IMG/VR virus record: IMGVR_UViG_3300037722_000226
Location: 1 to 64,000 of that record
Length of the DNA stretch: 64,000 nucleotides
Strand: one strand, 5' to 3'
Source: a virus
Shown: piece after piece, positions 951-60,541 of the stretch
Layout of the letters: each line of letters begins with the position of its first letter
How positions within the stretch are numbered: the first letter of the stretch is position 1
Notes under the pieces: generated by a model
The model's input: the letters and a program-made list of their open reading frames with translations, nothing else
What the model was told of the DNA's origin: nothing
Database searches by the model: none
Position numbers and translations under genes: made by a program

Positions 951-1147
951 GGCGTGCTCTCCATTTGTGCCCTCGTGCGCGCCGGTCCTACGTGCTCCAG
1001 CTCCCATTGTGCCCTGCACTGCTTGTTCCATCGCGCGCGGTTGCGCTCGTTGCGCTCGTCGGCGCCCAGGAGGCGATTCGCCTGGTACACCGCGACCTGA
1101 GCGCGAGAGCGGGGATCGTTGAATCTGTCGGTGTCGCGGCGGTTCAT
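947..1147 (-). CDS. hypothetical basic protein (66 aa)
   Basis: ATG at 1145-1147 overlaps the stop of the upstream gene (ATGA). Its own stop overlaps the next start. Confidence 0.45.
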   Translation of the reverse strand: MNRRDTDRFNDPRSRAQVAVYQANRLLGADERNERNRARWNKQCRAQWELEHVGPARTRAQMESTP

Positions 1148-1344
1148 GGCCGCGGCTCCACGCAGCGCTCGTACCATGTGTCGCCCTTCGGGTAGTCGGG
1201 CTCGATGCACCACGCGGGAGCATCGGCGCGCATCGTGAGCGGTGTCGGGGTCTCGGGCGGCTCGTCGCGGTCGCGGCCGATGTACGCCAGGATCATCAGC
1301 CCGAACAGGAGCAGCCACAGTCCCGGATGGCGCAGGAGATTCAT
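1144..1344 (-). CDS. small membrane protein (66 aa)
   Basis: ATG at 1342-1344 in an ATGA overlap. One clear TM helix: LWLLLFGLMILAYIG. Confidence 0.55.
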   Translation of the reverse strand: MNLLRHPGLWLLLFGLMILAYIGRDRDEPPETPTPLTMRADAPAWCIEPDYPKGDTWYERCVEPRP

Positions 1345-1841
1345 GGCTGCGTCGGCGCGATGGCATCGGCCGCGTCCGCCTCCCGCTCGGCTATGCGCTG
1401 GCCCTCGTCGTGGTCGACCTTGAGATGGCGCTCCGGCGCCGCGCCGCCGCCGCAGTAGTAGACGCCGCCGGCAGCCAAGACCCCGCGCACGAGCTTCGCC
1501 TCTTCCGCGTCGATCGTCTCGGCGTTGTCGATCAAGAATTCCTCCAGCTTCCCGCTCCATTCGACGGCGCCCGTGGCCGGATCGATAAGCACGACGGCTA
1601 TGCCCGGCGCGGCCTCTATCCGGCTGATCTGCTCACCGTAGGCCCACGGGCCGGCGGCCGTGCTGACGACGACGCGGCGCCCCCTGACCTCAGACCACGG
1701 GATTTCATCGACCGGCGTGCCCTCCTTGAAGCCCGGATCGCAGACCTCGATGTCCGTGACCTTCGTCGGTCGCGCCGGGGCTGTGCCAAAGCCGCCGCGC
1801 CACATGACGGTATCGCCGATTCTCAGGATGTCGTTGCTCAT
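1341..1841 (-). CDS. hypothetical protein (166 aa)
   Basis: ATG at 1839-1841 preceded by GGAGA. The remaining 5' part of ORF 1341..1907 lacks an RBS. Confidence 0.6.
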   Translation of the reverse strand: MSNDILRIGDTVMWRGGFGTAPARPTKVTDIEVCDPGFKEGTPVDEIPWSEVRGRRVVVSTAAGPWAYGEQISRIEAAPGIAVVLIDPATGAVEWSGKLEEFLIDNAETIDAEEAKLVRGVLAAGGVYYCGGGAAPERHLKVDHDEGQRIAEREADAADAIAPTQP

Positions 1842-2266
1842 GTTGAATCTCCTTCTGGCTCCACGTGGAACGTGTGAAAATCGTGATGACATTTTGCGCA
1901 TAACCATATGATTTCTAATGGTTTTCTGTAATCTGGATGATGCATGTGCAAGGCGCTATGAGTTGATTTTCCTGGCCATTGGCTCGTCGTCGCTCCGCAG
2001 ACTTGGCACGGCTGCCACTCAATCATGCCGAGCTTGAATGCGTGCGCCGCCAACACACGAGCGTTGTGGCGTTTCTGTTCCTCCGGGGATCGCGTAACGA
2101 CGAATCCTCGCGGTCGTGGTAACAGCTCGCGCAGCGGCGCAAGGCTTTCAAGAGCCTCATAGGCGCAGTCCCGGCAGTAGAGACTGCCCGCGGGTCCGAA
2201 CACCAGGTTCCGCCGGTCAAAAGCTAACTGACATTGCGCGCAGATCATTGGCCTACAATAGCGCAT
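1838..2266 (-). CDS. zinc-ribbon plus HNH-type endonuclease-like protein (142 aa)
   Basis: N-terminal CxxC...CxxC. C-terminal HHPDYRKPLEIIWLCAKCHHDFH matches the small-HNH signature HHxDYxxPLxVxWLCxxCH. The start may instead be the ATG at 2248. Confidence 0.65.
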   Translation of the reverse strand: MRYCRPMICAQCQLAFDRRNLVFGPAGSLYCRDCAYEALESLAPLRELLPRPRGFVVTRSPEEQKRHNARVLAAHAFKLGMIEWQPCQVCGATTSQWPGKSTHSALHMHHPDYRKPLEIIWLCAKCHHDFHTFHVEPEGDST

Positions 2267-2377: not shown

Positions 2378-3523
2378 ATGCTGATTTCAATAGACGAATT
2401 GCGCAAGACGCTCTGCGCGTCACTGATCGAGCGCGAGCCAGAAATCGAGGCGGCCTTGCTCGGCCTCGTGGCGCGCGAACACGTGCTGCTCGTCGGACCG
2501 CCGGGCACCGCCAAGTCGGCGCTTTCGAACGGCATCACGTCGGCCATTGCCGAGGCGCATGCGTTCACAGTGCTGCTGACGAAATTCACCACGCCCGAAG
2601 AGCTGTTCGGCCCGGTGAAACTCTCGGCGCTGCGCGAGGATCGTTACGAGCGCGCGACCGATGGCTACATGCCCACGGCACACGTCGCGTTCATCGATGA
2701 AGTGTGGAAAGCCTCGAGCGCCATCCTGAACACCCTGCTGACGATGCTCCAGGAGCGCGGATTCGATAACGGTGGCGTGCGGATGGCCTGCCCGCTGCGC
2801 ATCGCCATCGCGGCTTCGAACGAGTGGCCGAGCGCCGAGGACGGTCAGGAGCTTGGAGCCATCTTTGATCGCTTCCTGATCCGCCGACTGGTTCGTCCGG
2901 TCTCGCCGTCGAACCGAGCCAAGTTGTTGTACTCGGTCCTGCCGGTCGTTGAAACCGTGATCTCGCTCGGCGACATCGACCAGGCCGCCGACGAGGCCGC
3001 CAAGCTCAACGTCTCCGACGAGGCACAGGCGACCATGATGAAGATCCTCGACGAGCTGGCGGCCGCCGGCATTCGGCCGGGCGATCGGCGCAGCCGTAAG
3101 GCCATCGGCATCGCGCGCGCCGCGGCATGGCTCGACGGTGCGGCCGAGGTCGGGCCGGCGCATCTCGAGTGCCTGGCCGATGTTCTGTGGTCGTCGCCTG
3201 AGCAGATCGAGAAAACCAGCGAGATCGTGACGCAGATCGCGAATCCAGTCGGCGCCGCGCTGACCGAGCTGCTACGCGAAGTCGACGAGATCGTGAATTC
3301 GGCCGACTCCGGCGACGCGGCCGCGAAGATGACCGCGATCAAGAAGATGGAGAGCTGCGAGAAGAAGGCCGCCAAGCTCGTCGAAGGCTTCAAGACGCCG
3401 GCCGGCGCGGCACGGGCGACCGATCTACAGCGGCACGTGAAGAACGAGCGCATTCGCATCCAGGCGGCGGCGCTCGGAATCGACCCTGAGAAGGCACGCG
3501 CGTTGCTGGGGGGTGCGTCGTGA
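2378..3523 (+). CDS. MoxR/RavA-type AAA+ ATPase (381 aa)
   Basis: Walker A LLVGPPGTAKS, Walker B VAFIDEVWKAS, sensor-1-like IAIAASNE, and LNTLLTMLQER typical of the MoxR clade. Confidence 0.85.
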   Translation: MLISIDELRKTLCASLIEREPEIEAALLGLVAREHVLLVGPPGTAKSALSNGITSAIAEAHAFTVLLTKFTTPEELFGPVKLSALREDRYERATDGYMPTAHVAFIDEVWKASSAILNTLLTMLQERGFDNGGVRMACPLRIAIAASNEWPSAEDGQELGAIFDRFLIRRLVRPVSPSNRAKLLYSVLPVVETVISLGDIDQAADEAAKLNVSDEAQATMMKILDELAAAGIRPGDRRSRKAIGIARAAAWLDGAAEVGPAHLECLADVLWSSPEQIEKTSEIVTQIANPVGAALTELLREVDEIVNSADSGDAAAKMTAIKKMESCEKKAAKLVEGFKTPAGAARATDLQRHVKNERIRIQAAALGIDPEKARALLGGAS

Positions 3524-3756
3524 GCCGCGAAGAGCTGCTGGCGGCCTTCCGTAAAGACGTCTGCGACAAGCATGCCGCTGTTGATCCTGACGCCGAGCGC
3601 GACTGGATGGATCTCAGCTACGGCTATTTTCTCGCGAAAGGCGCGACGCCCGACGAAGCATGGGAGGTTGCGATCGAAGCGAGGTACACCCACGGATATT
3701 GGCTCCCCGGCGTCGATCCGGCAAATATCGACGGCATCGACGGGAGCAAGCCATGA
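3520..3756 (+). CDS. hypothetical acidic protein (78 aa)
   Basis: GTGA overlap with the ATPase stop and ATGA overlap with the next gene. Confidence 0.6.
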   Translation: MSREELLAAFRKDVCDKHAAVDPDAERDWMDLSYGYFLAKGATPDEAWEVAIEARYTHGYWLPGVDPANIDGIDGSKP

Positions 3757-5687
3757 GCCGCTTCCTGTTCACCGATGCAGTCGAGCGGGTTGGTTGCCCG
3801 AAGTGCGCCGCACCGGCCGGCGCTGTTTGCCTGCATCCTAGCGGCCGGCGCGCGCCGACGCCGCACACCGAGCGCACCGCGGCGCTTTCCGCGCTGCCGG
3901 ATTTCGACGCAAAGGATTACGAGCTGCCGGCCGGTCGGCCCGATGAAATCATGGCGGCGCTCAGGGGCGCCAAGCTGCACGACATTCCCAGCGTGCTCGG
4001 AGCAACGGCGTACCCAGATGAAGTCGCCGACGACGAGCCCGAATTCGGCCCCGAAGAACGTGAGATCGCTGACAGGCTGCGCGCGAGCTATCCGGGCTTG
4101 CCGACAGCACACCCAGGTATCGTGGACGCCGCGACGATCACGGACGAAGAGGCGGCGCGCATGGCGCTGGCGTTCCCAAAGCCGGTTTTCCCGGTCGACG
4201 AAGATGCCGTCTTCGACCCCGACACGATGACCGAGCCGCCTAGCGACGACACGCTGCACGCAGCACTCGCGGCCGACGACGACGCGGACACGGGAGGGCT
4301 GGGCGCCGTCGAAGGCGAAGGCGCCCGCCCGACCGAGCCGCGCGCCGAGACGACGCCGACTGTGCTCGACGTCGATCGCTGGGGGCGCGCCAAAGGCAAA
4401 GAGCTGGCCGAGTCGTGGAAGGCGGCCGACGTCGCCGAGCACAAGCCGGAGCACGTTGCCGACGCGCACGCGGCGCTCTTCGAACCGGAGCCGCGCCCGT
4501 CCACGGCGCCCGCTGAGCCGGGCCGTGCGGCCTGGTGGAAGCAGCTGATGGAGTCGCCCGAGTATCAGGCGCTCCACGGCAAGACGGCGCTCGACGGCGG
4601 CCTGAGCGAGCTGGCTTCCAAGTCGATCTGCGATCAGTGGAAAGAGTACGCCGTCGAGAATCCCGAGCCCGCGCCCTGCAAAGACGGCGAGGCGCCGGTC
4701 CCGGCGCCGGGCTCCGAAGGCGAGCCGCTGGCCAAGACGCTCAAGCGCATGCGCTCCACGGCCAAGGCGCTCGCCGAGGCATCCGATACCGTCGACACCG
4801 CGCGCGACACCGCCGCGGCGCTCGGGCTCGGCGGCGACGGCGGCGCGGGGTTCAGCTCGCTCGATCCCAAAGAGCTGACCACGTACTACAACCGCATCAA
4901 GGGCGACAAGTTTCTGCGCAATCTGATGCAGATGGCCGGTCGCATGCGGACCCTGTGCCAGACGCTACAGCGCACCAAGACGCAGCACGGGCGGGATGAT
5001 ACGGTCGGCGTCGAGCTTTCGGGCGACGTGTCGCGGCTCGTGCCGAGCGAGCTGGCGCAGCTCGCGTGCGGCATCCCGGAGCTGGAGTTACTCGCACTCG
5101 ATCGCGTCGCGCGCCGTCAGGCGCTATCGCGGCAGTATCGCGGGATCGAGCGGCTCGGGCAGGGTCCGATCGTCGTCGTCGTGGACGAGAGCGGCAGCAT
5201 GCACGGCGAGCCGGTCATGACGGCCAAGGCCATCGCGCTCGCGCTCGCTTGGCTCGCACGCCGGCAGAAGCGTTGGATCGCGCTGATCGGATTCACGGGC
5301 GGCCGCGGCATGAAGGGCTACAACCGCATTGCGTTCCCGCCAGGCAAGGTCGATCAAGACGCGCTGATCGACTGGCTGAAGCACTTCTACAGCGGCGGCA
5401 GCGACCGCGACATCCCCGTCAAGGAGATCCCGGCCGATTGGTCGCACTTAAAGCAGCTCGGCCTACCGGCGGGCAAGACGGACGTGATCATGATCACCGA
5501 CGCCATTGCTGATGTGCCCCAGCCGATGATCGAGACGTACCGCACCTGGGCGAAGGCCGAGCAGGCGCGGACCTACGGTATCTGCATCGGCCAGGACGAT
5601 GCCGGCGACCTGGGCGGCATCGCCGATCGCCATTGGTGCGTGCCGGACCTGTCGGGCAGCGCCGTCGACGCAGTTCTAAGCATCTGA
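3753..5687 (+). CDS. zinc-ribbon / VWA (MIDAS) domain protein (644 aa)
   Basis: ATG at 3753 in an ATGA overlap. N-terminal CPKCAAPAGAVC...H..R. Long acidic/Pro-rich middle. C-terminal VWA domain with VVVVDESGSMHG (DxSxS). Confidence 0.8.
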   Translation: MSRFLFTDAVERVGCPKCAAPAGAVCLHPSGRRAPTPHTERTAALSALPDFDAKDYELPAGRPDEIMAALRGAKLHDIPSVLGATAYPDEVADDEPEFGPEEREIADRLRASYPGLPTAHPGIVDAATITDEEAARMALAFPKPVFPVDEDAVFDPDTMTEPPSDDTLHAALAADDDADTGGLGAVEGEGARPTEPRAETTPTVLDVDRWGRAKGKELAESWKAADVAEHKPEHVADAHAALFEPEPRPSTAPAEPGRAAWWKQLMESPEYQALHGKTALDGGLSELASKSICDQWKEYAVENPEPAPCKDGEAPVPAPGSEGEPLAKTLKRMRSTAKALAEASDTVDTARDTAAALGLGGDGGAGFSSLDPKELTTYYNRIKGDKFLRNLMQMAGRMRTLCQTLQRTKTQHGRDDTVGVELSGDVSRLVPSELAQLACGIPELELLALDRVARRQALSRQYRGIERLGQGPIVVVVDESGSMHGEPVMTAKAIALALAWLARRQKRWIALIGFTGGRGMKGYNRIAFPPGKVDQDALIDWLKHFYSGGSDRDIPVKEIPADWSHLKQLGLPAGKTDVIMITDAIADVPQPMIETYRTWAKAEQARTYGICIGQDDAGDLGGIADRHWCVPDLSGSAVDAVLSI

Positions 5688-55099: not shown

Positions 55100-57484
55100 T
55101 CAAACCGCACGCCAGTTGATCGGCCGCCGGGTACGCTCGTATTCGTAGTCCGGAGGCGGCTTCCAGTCGGCGCCGACGCGCAGAACGAATGTGTTGGCGA
55201 GCGCGTCACCGTTGTCCGGCGATGGCGCGTGCGTCAGCACTTTCTTCTTCGTCTCGACTACCGGCCGGCCTTGATTGTCCCAATCCATCAGGGGATTGGT
55301 GATGTCACCTTGGATTTCTTCTAAGCCCTGCTCTTCGCCGATCACGGCATCGGCGCCGATGAAGGACGGAACGAGGTCGATGATACAAGGCCCGGCGGGC
55401 GCTTCAAACCATTCTCTCATGCGCCGCCAGTTCTGGGTGCGGATGTTGCGGTCGATGTGGGGCTCTTCGGCCTGCTCGCCGCCGAGCACCGCGACCAGGA
55501 TGATGCGCCGGGCGCGGCAAATCTCGACGAGCTGATCGTAGAGCCATCCCGATCCGCCGATGTCGACGCAGATGATGTCCGGCTTCCACTGATCGATGAT
55601 CGCCACGACGCGGGGGAAGCTCTGCGTGGTCGTGAGTCCGGTCCATCGGCCGACGCGCGTGGCGATGCGCCCTTGGCGCAGGATCGACACGAATCGGTCA
55701 TGGCCGCCGTCCGATGGGTCGATGCCGAGGATCTTCGGCCCAAGCGTCGCGATGAGCTTCGGGTCGCGGCGGCGCGCCATCAGCACGTACTTCGACGCGA
55801 TGTAGCCGCCCGCGATGTTGCTCGAGAACGCTTCTTCCGGCGTCGTCGGATACTGAGTGGCGAAGGCGATCGTGCCGCCTTCACCGCCGCCCAGCTCGAC
55901 GATCTTGTTTTGCCGGAACTGCATTTGCTCTTCGTCGAGTCCCCAGAACTCCATGTACTCGGCGTCGGCGGCGCTCAGCTCGAGATTGATGACGGGCGCG
56001 CTGTATTCGTAGCCGCCGTCCATGCGCTTCGGGAACCAGATCCACGGCACGAACACGGTCTCGTACTCGGACAGGCCCGCGCGCGCGTTCGCGTAGCCGA
56101 CCTGGAAGGCGTTGCCGATGCCCTTGCCGGTCGACTCGAGAAAGACCTCCGTGCCTCTTCCTTGCGGCGGAACGGTTTGCAGCACGCCCTTCAGGTGCTC
56201 GTCGGCGTTCGGCCACAGCGCGCACTCGGAACCGTGTAGCAGCTGCACCGTGTCGGAGTGGCCGATGTCCTTCGCGCCGGCCGTCGCGACGGCATAGGAC
56301 GAATCAAGAGCTGGGAACGTGATCCGCTTCTGCGAGATCAGCGCGTCGGGCTGCATCCACGACGGTAGATGCTCCATGAATCGATGCGTCATCGAGAAGA
56401 TGTTGCTCGTCGCCGCCGCCTGGTGTGTGAGGATGAACGCGCGCACGCCGCGGCCGCCGCGAATGATCTTCGTGAATTGCCGCGACTGGATATAAGTCGA
56501 GTTGTGCGATACGAGCCCGTTGGCGATGTACGTGCCGGTTGATGTCTCGATGTCGATCAGCTTCGTAGTTGGACCCGGCTCAATGGCGACGATCTTGCGC
56601 CAGCCGTTATTGGGAAGCCGTGCCCCTTCCCACCAGCGCTCGTCGATGAATCGTTCGGGCCGGCTGAGTCCGAGCACTTTGAACAACGACCGCGCGCTAC
56701 TGACATTGACGACGTAAACCGGATCGCGCCCGGCTTCTACGCGACTTCGATTGTTGAGCAGCACGGCATACTCGTAGCCCCGATTCTCACAAATCGAGTC
56801 CATGCGATCGAGCACAACGCCTTCGCGCTGCGCAATCGTCAGGCTAGAACCGCCTGTCTTGCGGCGGGCATTCAAGCATCCTTCCCCGTCGATCATACCG
56901 CCGAGCCAAGCGTCATCGAGCGTCTGGTCGCCCCATGTGTCTGTCACTGAACGAATCCACGTTCCGACCTTGAGCCGGGCACGGCCGGCAATAGAGCGCC
57001 ACTCGGCATCGTCTTGAGACTTCTTCGAGAGCCAACGATGATCAGCCGAGCACACGACGCTCGTGCCGTCATCCAGCACAATCCGAAACGATGGCTTCTC
57101 CGTGCGCCAGACGCGTAGCACGGTAGACGTGCGCATTTTCCGACTGCCGCGATGCGGTTCTTCGTCGCAAGCGACCAGCTCGTTGCCAACGCGCAATTCG
57201 CCGATCGGCAACCAATGCAAATCGGCTGTGAGCACAGGCGTATCCGGCGCGAGACAACCTCCCCACTGCCTTGCTTTTAAAAGGTACAGCCGCACGTACC
57301 CGAGCCGGCGCAGCTGCAGCTCGGCGCGTCGATGGAGATACAGCTGGCCGATGTTGTACCGGAAGGGCGCGATGCCTTCGGTCTTGGTTCGGATCTTGAG
57401 GAACCGCTCGCAGTATTCCGGCTGCGGCATCCTGAGCACGATCTCGGCTACACGTTCAGCCGTTTCCTCGCTGCTCGCTGCCAT
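55100..57484 (-). CDS. terL: terminase large subunit interrupted by an intein (794 aa precursor)
   Basis: The exteins give a KARQWGG|ST P-loop, a later LLHGSECALW Walker-B-like segment, and a nuclease-domain-sized C-terminus. Confidence 0.85.
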   Translation of the reverse strand: MAASSEETAERVAEIVLRMPQPEYCERFLKIRTKTEGIAPFRYNIGQLYLHRRAELQLRRLGYVRLYLLKARQWGGCLAPDTPVLTADLHWLPIGELRVGNELVACDEEPHRGSRKMRTSTVLRVWRTEKPSFRIVLDDGTSVVCSADHRWLSKKSQDDAEWRSIAGRARLKVGTWIRSVTDTWGDQTLDDAWLGGMIDGEGCLNARRKTGGSSLTIAQREGVVLDRMDSICENRGYEYAVLLNNRSRVEAGRDPVYVVNVSSARSLFKVLGLSRPERFIDERWWEGARLPNNGWRKIVAIEPGPTTKLIDIETSTGTYIANGLVSHNSTYIQSRQFTKIIRGGRGVRAFILTHQAAATSNIFSMTHRFMEHLPSWMQPDALISQKRITFPALDSSYAVATAGAKDIGHSDTVQLLHGSECALWPNADEHLKGVLQTVPPQGRGTEVFLESTGKGIGNAFQVGYANARAGLSEYETVFVPWIWFPKRMDGGYEYSAPVINLELSAADAEYMEFWGLDEEQMQFRQNKIVELGGGEGGTIAFATQYPTTPEEAFSSNIAGGYIASKYVLMARRRDPKLIATLGPKILGIDPSDGGHDRFVSILRQGRIATRVGRWTGLTTTQSFPRVVAIIDQWKPDIICVDIGGSGWLYDQLVEICRARRIILVAVLGGEQAEEPHIDRNIRTQNWRRMREWFEAPAGPCIIDLVPSFIGADAVIGEEQGLEEIQGDITNPLMDWDNQGRPVVETKKKVLTHAPSPDNGDALANTFVLRVGADWKPPPDYEYERTRRPINWRAV
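56501..57256 (-). mobile_element. 252-aa LAGLIDADG-type intein in the TerL Walker A loop (aa 77-328)
   Basis: Starts at Cys (TGT, complement of 57254-57256; CLAPDTPVLT). Block B is SVVCSADHRWL. Endonuclease motif LGGMIDGEGCL. Ends ...YIANGLVSHN (AAC, complement of 56501-56503), followed by Ser at +1. Confidence 0.8.
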
Positions 57485-57490
57485 CGTGGA

Positions 57491-59167
57491 TTACTGACTG
57501 ACGTTCGCTCGTGTGAACAGCGGATCGCGGCTGACGATGCGGCGGCGCGCGATTTCGGTGTAGTCGGCGTCAAGCTCGAAGCCAATGAAGTCCATCCCTT
57601 CGAGCACGGCTGCCTTGCCCGTCGAGCCCGAGCCCATGAACGGATCGAGGATGCGGGCGCCGCGCGGCGCGACGAGCTTGCATAGGTACTGCATCAGCTC
57701 GGTCGGCTTCACGGTCGGGTGATAGTTCTGCTGCTCGCGCTCGGTGCCTTCGGACTGAAATGTACCAGGAGATTCGAGCCCTTCGTTGCGGTCCTTACGC
57801 GATGCCTTCGGACACCAGAAGAACCGCGCCGCACTGCCGCTGTCGCCGCCAAAAAACTGCGTGATCTCGCGCCCCTTGAACTCCCCGAGTACGCCCGCTG
57901 CCTTTCCCGAGTCCCTATGCGACGGAGTTAGACTGCCGCTCTCAGACTGCGGAAACGCCGCTACGACTTCCTCGCTGCCGTCGTGCAGGACGTTCGCGGG
58001 CCAGCGGCCGAGCACAGACGAGCTGCCACCGCCGGGCCGCATATCCGTCGTGCCGGCGTGCCCACGGTCGCCGCTATGGTTCGCGGCGTAGCTTTCACGA
58101 TCGGCCACGTCGATGCGGCAGCCGTCGATGTTCAGCGCGCCGACGCCGTGGCGCAGTTCGTTCTCCAGCAAAGTGCCGCGCAGCGGCTTACGGGCTATAA
58201 GGATCGGCTCATAGGCCGGTTTAAGGGCAGACCCAAGTCCTCGGGGTAGATCAGGTTTGCCGCACCGTGGACAAAGCGGCCATGCTCCGCGAGTTTGTGG
58301 CTCCGATTGTCCGGCCATAGCTCGAGATTCGTCCGTGCGTTGCGCAGCGGATCGTGGTCGACGTGATGGACCGTCTCGGTTCTCGTCAGCAGACGGCCGC
58401 ACCATTCCGCCATCACGAGGCGATGCTCCATCACGTAGCCGTCCTTCCGGGCCATCGGTAGCGCCCACTTCGGGGATCTCACGTACCTCACGCTCACGTA
58501 GTTGCCGCGCCTCCGGCGATACGTCACGCCGCCCTTCCATGCTGGATTGTTCGCTCCCCTCAGCTTCGGGTTCGGTCCTTTCGGTCCGATCTGCCGGTAG
58601 GCGCGCAATATCAGCGCCTCTGAGCGCAGTTTCCCGTTGCATCTCCGAGAACAGGTCGGCGTCTTGACTCGCTTCCGCCACGCGGCCGGCATCGTTCTTG
58701 GCTGGCCGCACACCGCGCATTTGATCGTCACTCTCGGAGCACCCGCAAATGGCATCGCCTCGCTTCCTGTCCAGGTTGTGGGACTTCGGGAATCCAGTCC
58801 CGTACATATACATGATCGTGTCGCGAATCTCCCAGCCGGCATCCTCGACAGCGCACCAAACGCGATGGAACGTCCGCGTGCCGCCGAACACGACAAGGTG
58901 CGCGCCGGGTTTCGCGACGCGCAGGAGCAGCGCCCACGTCTCGGGCCGCAGCGCGATGTCGCCGCCGTCCCACTTCATGCCCATGAATCCGGTGCCGATC
59001 ATCGAGCGGCCTGCCGGCGAATCAGGGTTGACGCTCGCGAGTCCGCTGCCGCCCTTCTTGCCGGTCGTCAGGTGATACGGCGGATCAGTCACGATCGCGT
59101 CGATCGACTCGTCGGCAATCGCCGCGAGCTTTTCGCGCATGTCGCCGATGTAGATCGTGGCATCCAA
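57491..59167 (-). CDS. beta-class N6A/N4C DNA methyltransferase with a ~170-aa non-homologous insert (558 aa)
   Basis: TTG start. N-terminal SIDAIVTDPPYH. C-terminal ALKPAYEPILIARKP, HPTVKPTEL and ILDPFMGSGSTGKAA. The middle (aa ~140-305) is Arg/Glu/Pro-rich off-frame-like sequence. Confidence 0.8.
   Translation of the reverse strand: MDATIYIGDMREKLAAIADESIDAIVTDPPYHLTTGKKGGSGLASVNPDSPAGRSMIGTGFMGMKWDGGDIALRPETWALLLRVAKPGAHLVVFGGTRTFHRVWCAVEDAGWEIRDTIMYMYGTGFPKSHNLDRKRGDAICGCSESDDQMRGVRPAKNDAGRVAEASQDADLFSEMQRETALRGADIARLPADRTERTEPEAEGSEQSSMEGRRDVSPEARQLREREVREIPEVGATDGPEGRLRDGASPRDGGMVRPSADENRDGPSRRPRSAAQRTDESRAMAGQSEPQTRGAWPLCPRCGKPDLPRGLGSALKPAYEPILIARKPLRGTLLENELRHGVGALNIDGCRIDVADRESYAANHSGDRGHAGTTDMRPGGGSSSVLGRWPANVLHDGSEEVVAAFPQSESGSLTPSHRDSGKAAGVLGEFKGREITQFFGGDSGSAARFFWCPKASRKDRNEGLESPGTFQSEGTEREQQNYHPTVKPTELMQYLCKLVAPRGARILDPFMGSGSTGKAAVLEGMDFIGFELDADYTEIARRRIVSRDPLFTRANVSQ
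58195..58755 (-). CDS. HNH homing endonuclease nested out of frame inside the MTase gene (186 aa)
   Basis: ATG at 58753-58755 after GAGG. Carries CAVCG...TPTCSRRC, NPAWKGG, and GYVMEHRLVMAEWCGRLLTRTETVHHVDHDPLRNARTNLELW...H, the classic phage HNH endonuclease layout. Confidence 0.8.
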   Translation of the reverse strand: MPFAGAPRVTIKCAVCGQPRTMPAAWRKRVKTPTCSRRCNGKLRSEALILRAYRQIGPKGPNPKLRGANNPAWKGGVTYRRRRGNYVSVRYVRSPKWALPMARKDGYVMEHRLVMAEWCGRLLTRTETVHHVDHDPLRNARTNLELWPDNRSHKLAEHGRFVHGAANLIYPEDLGLPLNRPMSRSL

Positions 59168-59172
59168 GTGGA

Positions 59173-59847
59173 TTACGAACTTGTGCTGGAGTAGAACGCG
59201 CTGTTCTTTACGCCGCTGGGAATTCCCAGCATCGAAAACCGCTGCATCGCGTTGAACAAGTCCTCGGGCGGCAGCCCTTCGTACTGCTCCATAATTTTGA
59301 GCGCGGCTTCGGCGGCAACCAGGTGGCGAGATTCCTTCTCCAGCGCAATGCGGGCGCGCGCGATCTGCTCATCGATGATGTCTTTGACGAGGTTGCTGCC
59401 GTCGCCCTTGAACTTCATACGCTTGAGCTGGCGCTCGAGGCCGGAGATCAGCGACTCACACGAACGCTTGCGGCCGCGCGAAGCGTCCCGTATCTGCCGC
59501 AGAAAATCGCGTAGTGTGTCCACGAGCGAAAACCGCGGATCGGCCATTACGCCTTGCGCATCGGATTGCTTGATCGTCTCGATCACCGCGCCGGCCAGAA
59601 GGCTGATCGCCAGAGACTCGCCGCTGTCGCGTTCCGTGTTGCCCGTCTCATCGTAGCTCGCGCGTCGCACCGGGTCGCTCAGGATGTCGTACGCCTCTTG
59701 CACGAGCTGGAAGCGCGTCGTGGCGCGCGGATCGTCGGGGTTGCGATCGGGATGCGTCTCGCGCGCCTTGCGGCGGTAGGCAGCTTTGATGGTCTTGGCA
59801 TCGGCGCCGGGTTCGATGCCGAGCTGGAAGTATGGATCAAGAGCCAC
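59173..59847 (-). CDS. J-domain (DnaJ-like) protein (224 aa)
   Basis: DPYFQLGIEPGADAKTIKAAYRRKARETHPDRNPDDP...FQLVQEAYDILSDPVRRASYD has an intact HPD tripeptide. Confidence 0.85.
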   Translation of the reverse strand: MALDPYFQLGIEPGADAKTIKAAYRRKARETHPDRNPDDPRATTRFQLVQEAYDILSDPVRRASYDETGNTERDSGESLAISLLAGAVIETIKQSDAQGVMADPRFSLVDTLRDFLRQIRDASRGRKRSCESLISGLERQLKRMKFKGDGSNLVKDIIDEQIARARIALEKESRHLVAAEAALKIMEQYEGLPPEDLFNAMQRFSMLGIPSGVKNSAFYSSTSS

Positions 59848-60541
59848 GGCGGCCGCCCTCCAGGAGTCGGAGCTTGCGCTCGAACTCGATTACGTTGTCG
59901 GGCAGCGTCGGCGCCGCGATCGGCTTGCGAAGATCATCGAGAATCGCCTGCCAGTTCACAGCCTCGTCGGCGCCCTTGCCCTTGTTGGCGTCGTCGAGGC
60001 CCCAGACGGAGCGTTCGCACTGTATCGCCTGATTGATGGCGCGCGCCAGTTTTTCGACGTGTTCGACGACGACCTTGCGCGCGCGCGCGGCGTTCAACAG
60101 GAACTCGGCCAGCGGCTTCGTGTCGCCGCTGAATGCCTTCATCTTCAGCCGCTCGATGTGATCGACGTCGACGAACGAGCTTGCCATCGACGACATGGCT
60201 TGCGTCTCTTCCAGCTCGTGCTCGAGAACGCCGCGGAGCTGCGCACTGAGGCGTTTCTGATTGCGCTCCACGACATCGACCGTGCCCTCTGAACGGCCCG
60301 GAGATAGGCCAGGAGATAGGCCCGTGATGATCAGCTCACTGTCCGGCGGCTTTGCGGATTCTTTTGTAGCTGCGGCCGCTGCTGCCTCGGCTGCCTTCCA
60401 CTCGCGAATCTTGGGGATGACTTCGAGCGTTCGGACGCCAAGCTCGCGGGCCGTGGCGATCGCCGCGTATTCGCCTTCGGATTGGTACGCTGCCTTGATC
60501 TTTGCCCACTTGTCGGCCCACTTGTCGTGAGCAGCATCCAT
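59837..60541 (-). CDS. putative terminase small subunit / DNA-binding protein (234 aa)
   Basis: N-terminal HTH-like AIATARELGVRT. Position upstream of the packaging genes. Assignment is by position only. Confidence 0.4.
   Translation of the reverse strand: MDAAHDKWADKWAKIKAAYQSEGEYAAIATARELGVRTLEVIPKIREWKAAEAAAAAATKESAKPPDSELIITGLSPGLSPGRSEGTVDVVERNQKRLSAQLRGVLEHELEETQAMSSMASSFVDVDHIERLKMKAFSGDTKPLAEFLLNAARARKVVVEHVEKLARAINQAIQCERSVWGLDDANKGKGADEAVNWQAILDDLRKPIAAPTLPDNVIEFERKLRLLEGGRRGS

Follow-up and report, generated by a model that had tools for sequence, protein, structure and literature searches.

The stretch of viral DNA analysed here (64,000 nucleotides (nt), positions 1 to 64,000 of the IMG/VR record IMGVR_UViG_3300037722_000226, referred to as the window) carries on its minus strand a gene for a beta-class N6/N4 DNA methyltransferase (hereafter methylase), inside which a second gene, coding for an HNH endonuclease, is nested out of frame. 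We consider it probable, at roughly 80%, that the nested gene is part of a homing-type selfish HNH cassette residing in a surface loop of an orphan phage methylase, between its GFPKS and ALKPxxEP motifs, without an intron or an intein. The length of the cassette is a multiple of three and the HNH is encoded in its +1 frame. The nested arrangement had been proposed from the letters of the window by a model that made no database searches (the sequence-only reading), and it is upheld by the absence of the insert from the nearest homologues and by a methylase frame that is free of stops over the HNH gene in 72/73 distinct related loci. The explanation which that reading had placed first, an HNH gene that invaded a methylase loop and produced an overprinted gene pair, is supported by the same results and also by purifying selection in the HNH frame inside the insert. 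This kind of element is already published, as the ShiLan domain first described in 2025 in mycobacteriophages, and it is compared with the window below.

The host methylase and its insert

The methylase open reading frame (ORF; coordinates of all features are given in Table 1) starts with a TTG codon and matches Pfam N6_N4_Mtase (2.2e-25) and the PHROG DNA methyltransferase families (best 3.8e-58), while the NCBIfam CcrM-like matches fall on its C-terminal part. Its motifs are intact, namely DPPY (amino acids (aa) 28-31), GFPKS (125-129), ALKPAYEP (314-321), HPTVKP (483-488) and DPFMGSGST (508-516), and their order is that of the beta class, with DPPY (motif IV) N-terminal to FMGSG (motif I, 510-514). 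An AlphaFold model of the whole protein, built on a 67-sequence alignment, has a core with a predicted local distance difference test score (pLDDT) above 90, and in Foldseek this model matches M.RsrI (E=4.8e-10, template-modelling (TM) score 0.73 on the target) as well as CcrM, M.BceJIV and M.MboIIA.

The protein database contains a protein identical to the window methylase (P0001, from a 67.5-kilobase (kb) contig), and the relatives found there fall into two length classes, of about 400 aa and about 540-650 aa. In the closest homologues, which belong to the shorter class and lack the insert (P0003, for example, at 75% identity), GFPKSxNQD is joined almost directly to GxWxGWGTALKPA, while the window and its long relatives have some 175-190 extra residues at this site. 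The insert junctions were set from a protein alignment of both length classes, the check that the sequence-only reading had named for them, and this places the insert at about aa 134-309 with junctions ambiguous by several codons. Among the top 120 homologues, both flanking motifs were found in 110; the loop is short in 63 of these and long in 39. In the AlphaFold model, most of the insert (residues 152-285) has pLDDT below 50 and is predicted to be disordered, and its two ends are confident (pLDDT 75-89 for residues 131-150 and 72-91 for residues 291-310).

The GC content of the window is 63%. A megablast comparison of 14 kb around the locus with phage records gave a 122-nt match to an Achromobacter phage as its sole match, so that no sequenced phage is a close relative in this region.

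The nested HNH endonuclease

Relative to the methylase, the HNH ORF is in the +1 frame, as (59167-58755) mod 3 = 1. It matches nine PHROG families, all of which are annotated as HNH endonuclease (best 7e-15, covering residues 64-156), and has 953 relatives in the protein database at E<=1e-5. The window HNH keeps every invariant column in the alignment of its 64-member family (A4). The cysteine columns of its N-terminal zinc finger are invariant or nearly so in this alignment, and the invariant residues of the nuclease core are H111, H131, H134, N139, N143, N150 and H153. Pfam HNH_3 is detected at E<=0.001 in 46/64 of the aligned close relatives, and the L030 homologue reaches 35.9 bits. The AlphaFold model of the HNH has a mean pLDDT of 81.7, with a confident zinc finger and core; the last 25 or so residues, which overlap conserved methylase sequence, are not confident. 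The overlap of the HNH 3' end with ALKPAYEP, which had been noticed from the letters of the window, is borne out, with the last ~10 sense codons overlapping ALKPAYEP(IL).

The methylase frame stays open across related loci

We retrieved 80 viral contigs encoding HNH relatives, with GC from 33 to 66%, and used tblastn to place on each of them the HNH and the two parts of the methylase (N-part and C-part). Of the 79 loci whose methylase is on the same strand as the HNH, 69 have the HNH enclosed in a methylase ORF without interruption between N-part and C-part, and the relative frame of the HNH is +1 in 74/75 of the loci where the frame was measured. The sequence-only reading had also considered a gene in pieces, which finds no support given an ORF that is continuous in the window and in these related loci.

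The number of stops to be expected was obtained by shuffling synonymous codons within each HNH gene, leaving protein and codon usage unchanged. Over the HNH genes of the 73 distinct loci, 541 stops were expected in the methylase frame (about 7 per gene, and 9-15 in loci down to 33% GC) and 15 were observed, all of them in a single locus (L053); of loci with zero stops, 0.19 were expected. The third frame, used as control, had 714 stops with 654 expected. Selection keeps the methylase frame stop-free across the HNH gene. In contrast, the methylase-equivalent frame is not kept open in six free-standing HNH relatives of bacterial genomes, consisting of five distant relatives and one (L094) that lies beside an uninterrupted methylase.

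These counts bear on the idea that the methylase was inactivated by the insertion, its frame remaining open by chance in GC-rich DNA. A GC content of 63% does lower the frequency of stop codons, and the insert peptide does resemble off-frame translation. Even so, 3.9 methylase-frame stops were expected in the window alone, giving P(0) of ~0.01 (its third frame has 13 stops, with 10.2 expected), the frame is equally open in loci down to 33% GC, and the methylase motifs downstream of the insert are conserved and have their greatest diversity at codon position 3. We therefore regard an inactivated methylase as very improbable.

The same holds for a further option of the sequence-only reading, a compact intron of group I or II that carries the HNH ORF and splices itself out of the messenger RNA. 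Group I introns of phages frequently contain HNH genes, a point discussed in PMC11855218. Nonetheless, a cmscan of positions 56500..60500 on either strand against 4227 Rfam families gave 0 matches at E<=1, and the HNH ORF fills the insert and overlaps both of its ends, leaving no room for a ribozyme core. Further, a spliced-out segment needs no open host frame, so the selection for a stop-free frame would be left unexplained and the intron proposal fails; we give it hardly any credence.

Several of the related loci have features of their own. In L053 (2113..3075), and at no other locus, the HNH shares the reading frame of the methylase N-part with a stop between them and the C-part is in another frame, which looks like a broken or split version of the arrangement. 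In L094, which is the Curtobacterium pusillum plasmid pCPAA3, the free-standing HNH (2501..3016) is just downstream of an uninterrupted methylase (~1116..2198) and its -1 frame is closed, an arrangement resembling the free-standing HNH genes next to methylases that have been reported in phages Tiff81 and Sashimi. L091, a 2.9-kb contig that was binned to the archaeon Methanospirillum sp., has an HNH nested in a methylase and could represent an archaeal virus or a binning error.

Selection acts on different frames in the flanks and in the insert

For 22 loci with the window-type insert, we made a codon alignment and calculated nucleotide diversity for each methylase codon position. In the flanks (GFPKS...; ...GLGSALKPAYEP), diversity is 0.20-0.42 at position 1, 0.12-0.32 at position 2 and 0.63-0.70 at position 3, the usual picture for selection in the methylase frame. 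In the insert core (~aa 205-295), the corresponding values are 0.46-0.63, 0.16-0.52 and 0.06-0.35. Methylase position 1 corresponds here to the HNH wobble position and methylase position 3 to HNH position 2; core diversity is highest at the HNH wobble position, and the core is therefore under purifying selection in the HNH frame, with the methylase frame there merely kept open. A short segment at the 3' end of the insert, AWPLCPRCGK (aa 295-304), has low diversity at all three positions (0.33, 0.31 and 0.38), which fits either a constraint in both frames or a conserved homing or recombination sequence.

We also considered, and rejected, the idea that the insert peptide is selected to be hydrophilic or disordered over and above the avoidance of stops, as the hydropathy of the methylase-frame peptide relative to synonymous shuffles (mean z = -0.83) hardly differs from that of the third-frame control (-0.80) and gives no specific signal.

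Expression of the HNH

The sequence-only reading had given the HNH gene its own GAGG-ATG. The GAGG is present, but its spacing from the ATG is too short for it to be the best choice, and AGGA(AG), farther upstream, is the better-spaced candidate (Table 1). In most loci with the window-type insert, an ATG or GTG is found 10-13 codons ahead of the first CxxC of the HNH.

Instead of independent initiation, programmed ribosomal frameshifting might yield a fusion enzyme in which the HNH is joined to either the N-part or the C-part of the methylase. In favour of this, the window has 47 open +1-frame codons ahead of the HNH ATG. In 15/22 loci, however, there is a +1-frame stop within ~40 codons upstream of the first HNH CxxC, and in several (L006 and L067) it stands directly ahead of the HNH start codon, so a long N-terminal frameshift fusion is excluded in these loci and the HNH must initiate independently there. 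No conserved slippery site was found, and under frameshifting the zero frame would have no need to stay open. Frameshifting accordingly ranks among the least probable explanations.

The same HNH lineage inside an intein

In about 33 viral loci (L022, L030, L045, L052, L063 and L080 among them), the HNH is found in a longer insert, of 270-430 residues, between W.YG and SGFPKS, and thus at an insertion point (YG/SGFPKS) a few codons upstream of the insert site in the window. Read in the methylase frame, this insert starts with CLSEDTEIL, contains DQIVSRNHRC (the TxxH pattern of block B) and ends with GAFVARRNGKxFxTGN, followed by S. Pfam did not detect a Hint domain in these methylase ORFs; a profile of the joined insert ends, compared with PDB sequences, matches the solved AceL NrdHF intein over nearly its full length (1e-7) and other mini-inteins more weakly. 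The HNH ORF occupies the +1 frame of the central linker of this intein (e.g., L030 2568..3599).

Out-of-frame endonucleases of inteins have been described by Gosselin, Arsenault & Gogarten (bioRxiv 10.1101/2025.01.02.630785), where they are endonuclease VII-like, in frame 3, and hosted by inteins of DNA polymerase, minor capsid, terminase and thymidylate synthase. The intein-linker HNH found here is likewise out of frame, whereas the preprint includes neither HNH_3 nor methylases, and HNH_3 in a methylase intein seems to be an unreported variant.

The window has no such intein at the YG/SGFPKS site. Since a true intein that encloses the same HNH is present a few codons upstream in related methylases, the window insert might itself be an atypical intein that splices at the protein level. 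Against this, Pfam finds no Hint domain in the window insert, and neither a Cys/Ser/Thr at position 1 nor a block B or terminal Asn pattern is present. Further, AlphaFold predicts a disordered insert. The Hint fold takes some 130-150 residues, and that many in-frame residues would not fit in an insert whose core is under HNH-frame constraint. We consider protein splicing of the window insert highly unlikely.

A four-cysteine motif at the cassette ends

The ends of the insert encode, in the methylase frame, the two halves of a four-cysteine motif, a CxC that follows GFPKSxNLD... and a CxxCGxP that precedes GLGTALKP. This motif is present in 39/39 insert-bearing homologues and in 0/63 short-loop homologues. 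In the window, its halves are CGC and CPRC, the latter overlapping the non-conserved C-terminal tail of the HNH.

A methylase of 470 aa (P0079; L089 560..720) has a CxC...CxxC loop with 17 residues between the two halves and without an HNH. Its DNA still encodes in the +1 frame LAEHGRFVEGAVN, a conserved C-terminal motif of the HNH family, and this 3' remnant shows that P0079 derives by deletion from an allele that had been invaded and does not represent an empty site. At another locus (L005), the HNH is 75% identical to that of the window while the N-part of the methylase is 38% identical, and the cysteine motifs and GLGTALKPAFEP are common to both, which suggests that the flanks travel with the cassette. 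The same locus (2409..5225) has a 939-aa open frame coding for a much longer, divergent methylase with long low-complexity segments rich in Ser and Thr. Across loci, the similarities of HNH and methylase are uncorrelated (Spearman 0.18 and 0.16, not significant).

One tentative interpretation, which we hold to be possible and less probable than its opposite, is that the cassette carries a structural adaptor. CxC and CxxCGxP would form a zinc knuckle that holds the ~175-residue loop together at its base and so lets the host enzyme fold. Homing endonuclease genes would then have, beside introns and inteins, a dedicated third way of residing in protein-coding genes without splicing, and the HNH lineage would have moved between intein linker and loop while keeping its +1 phase. 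This interpretation draws on the distribution of the motif among insert-bearing and short-loop homologues, the remnant in P0079, the joint transfer suggested by L005 and the insert ends that AlphaFold predicts with confidence. Two observations count against it. The knuckle could be an original feature of a methylase subfamily, as the insert-free allele of the mycobacteriophage Oogway has CDC...CSWC, and the motif is wholly absent from four loci with a loop-type insert (L060/L064 and L067/L068).

The mobility data also bear on whether the HNH is selfish at all. It could instead have been recruited as one half of an overprinted restriction-modification- or addiction-like pair, in which it attacks unmethylated DNA of competitors or of the host and is co-inherited with the methylase by virtue of nesting. 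HNH-type restriction enzymes exist, and this HNH lineage is almost always found in or beside methylase genes of the same family. We nevertheless consider recruitment improbable, given that close methylase alleles differ in the presence of the cassette, that HNH and methylase similarities are decoupled, that the methylase persists without the HNH in the deletion derivative P0079, and that the same HNH occurs inside an intein of related methylases, as is typical of a homing endonuclease.

Proposed mechanism

For a homing-type cassette in the methylase loop, we propose the following course of events. Ribosomes would translate the methylase straight through the cassette, yielding a full-length enzyme with a disordered loop of ~175 residues, the base of which may be closed by the CxC...CxxC motifs encoded in the methylase frame at the cassette ends. 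The HNH protein would arise from a separate, internal initiation at ATG 58755 and would cut or nick insert-free methylase alleles in co-infecting phages or prophages. Repair would then copy the cassette and its immediate flanks into the cut allele, and because the methylase would keep working, the cost to the host would be low and the element could persist.

Frameshift fusion, intron, atypical intein and pseudogene were all rejected on the evidence given with each above. Several points weigh against the homing cassette itself. The HNH_3 score of the window (PF13392; 15.4 bits, E=0.014) is below the gathering threshold of 24.8 bits. A Foldseek comparison of the HNH model with PDB gave nothing significant (I-HmuI (1u3e) ranked 5th, E=3.2, TM 0.30), and the family profile from A4, compared with PDB sequences, gave weak zinc-finger matches and no solved nuclease. 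The decoupling of HNH and methylase is a crude test and not a phylogenetic one, and a Shine-Dalgarno-like motif at 4-11 nt is found in about half of the loci, being weak or absent in the rest. HNH cleavage, homing, methylase function and zinc binding are steps that we infer, methylase activity having as its sole basis that selection keeps the frame open. Lastly, a 175-residue loop near the DNA-binding region could impair the methylase.

Comparison with known systems

The ShiLan domain is an out-of-frame HNH inside a mycobacteriophage methylase, whose host frame has no internal stops and in which no intron or intein is detectable; its in-frame product is predicted to loop out, and its distribution is disjunct and homing-like (Arsenault, Gosselin & Gogarten 2025, PMC11855218). 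The same paper mentions similar elements in other phages and in prokaryotes, the genome announcement of phage Applejack uses the same ShiLan-type description, and a 2023 source cited with this type of system is PMC9957025.

In a tblastn comparison with phage records, mycobacteriophage methylases are 32-35% identical to the window methylase over 97% of its length (33-35% for those of Optimus, StellaBean and Molly), and several mycobacteriophage records annotate "DNA methylase" and "HNH endonuclease" at the equivalent place. In StellaBean, Molly and Lamina13, the distance from the methylase start to the start of the annotated HNH coding sequence is 361 or 355 nt, which puts the HNH in the +1 frame, and Optimus has the same nested ORF without annotation. 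The ShiLan domain and the window insert occupy the same loop, from GFPKS to GTALKPAFEP (ALKPxxEP), inside the CxC...CxxC motif, and they are alike in their stop-free host frame, their lack of an intron or intein signature and the predicted disorder of their in-frame product.

The nuclease core differs, being HNH_3 in the window and a classical HNH in ShiLan. When the two HNH proteins are compared, the N-terminal zinc finger alone aligns (31 residues, E=1e-4) and the cores do not; tblastn with the window HNH found nothing in loci L001-L004. The phages differ as well, as the window, with its 63% GC, does not come from an actinophage. The window has a Shine-Dalgarno-like motif, whereas PMC11855218 invokes leaderless initiation, and the HNH frame that is called the third frame in that paper is named +1 here.

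The arrangement is no mycobacteriophage curiosity, as it occurs in ~70 viral contigs with GC from 33 to 66% and in contigs assigned to several bacterial phyla. Besides this scale, the present analysis adds a quantification of the selection for a stop-free frame together with the amino-acid constraint in the HNH frame, the intein-embedded form and the association with four cysteines.

Free-standing homing endonucleases of phages include the seg and mob genes of T4, the mobE of Aeh1 that splits nrdA, and HNH nickases of the I-HmuI type. The window element shares with them an HNH_3-type nuclease, a conserved target gene, a patchy distribution among alleles and flanks that appear to travel. In contrast to these genes, which lie between genes, split their host or reside in introns, the window element leaves its host ORF continuous. 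The usual view is that homing endonuclease genes survive in essential or useful genes only by means of self-splicing introns or inteins. The window element, like the ShiLan domain, uses neither, and the host instead reads through the nuclease gene in another frame. It is also a clean example from nature of two genes overprinted on the same strand over a long stretch (~170 codons), where the sole constraint on one frame is to remain without stops. Gene callers miss such nested genes, and the methylases that carry them are annotated as ordinary long methylases.

Neighbouring genes and other mobile elements

Table 1. Features of the methylase locus and its neighbourhood in the window
Feature	Coordinates	Strand	Remarks
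Methylase ORF	57491..59167	-	beta-class N6/N4 DNA methyltransferase, 558 aa, uninterrupted through the insert; from ORF list and PF01555
Insert	58241..58768	-	176 codons (a multiple of 3); ends uncertain by several codons
HNH endonuclease ORF	58195..58755	-	186 aa plus stop, from ATG 58755 to stop 58195; +1 frame of methylase
N-terminal zinc finger of HNH	58639..58719	-	CxxC...CSxxC (C13, C16, C35, C39); pLDDT 93-98
HNH_3-type nuclease core	58276..58458	-	~aa 100-160 of HNH; pLDDT 87-95
CGC	58739..58747	-	C141, C143 in methylase frame; first half of four-cysteine motif, 5' end of insert
CPRC	58262..58273	-	C299, C302 in methylase frame; second half of four-cysteine motif, 3' end of insert
AGGAAG	58763..58768	-	Shine-Dalgarno-like, 9 nt upstream of HNH ATG; inferred from motif scan
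GAGG	58758..58761	-	2 nt from HNH ATG; motif scan
Terminase large subunit ORF	55100..57484	-	neighbour of the methylase
Terminase intein	56501..57256	-	252 aa
DnaJ-domain gene	59173..59847	-	224 aa; just upstream of methylase

A DnaJ (J) domain, uncommon in phages, is present in the product of the gene just upstream of the methylase (Pfam 4.7e-23). On the other side, the gene for the terminase large subunit contains an intein, with the junctions GG/CLAPDT...LVSHN/STY, whose LGGMIDGEGC resembles a LAGLIDADG motif. Its matches are the solved DnaB and gp41-1 inteins, the intein portion of an NCBIfam model (1e-25) and the N-terminal splicing region of inteins (4e-4). With this intein and the HNH cassette of the methylase, two adjacent genes each host a different mobile element.

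Among the homologous methylases, P0033 (578 aa) and P0083 (747 aa) have an in-frame LAGLIDADG_1 domain (PF00961), which in P0083 occurs together with a long Cys-flanked insert of the HNH type. For homing endonucleases of several kinds, this family of methylases seems to be a hot spot.

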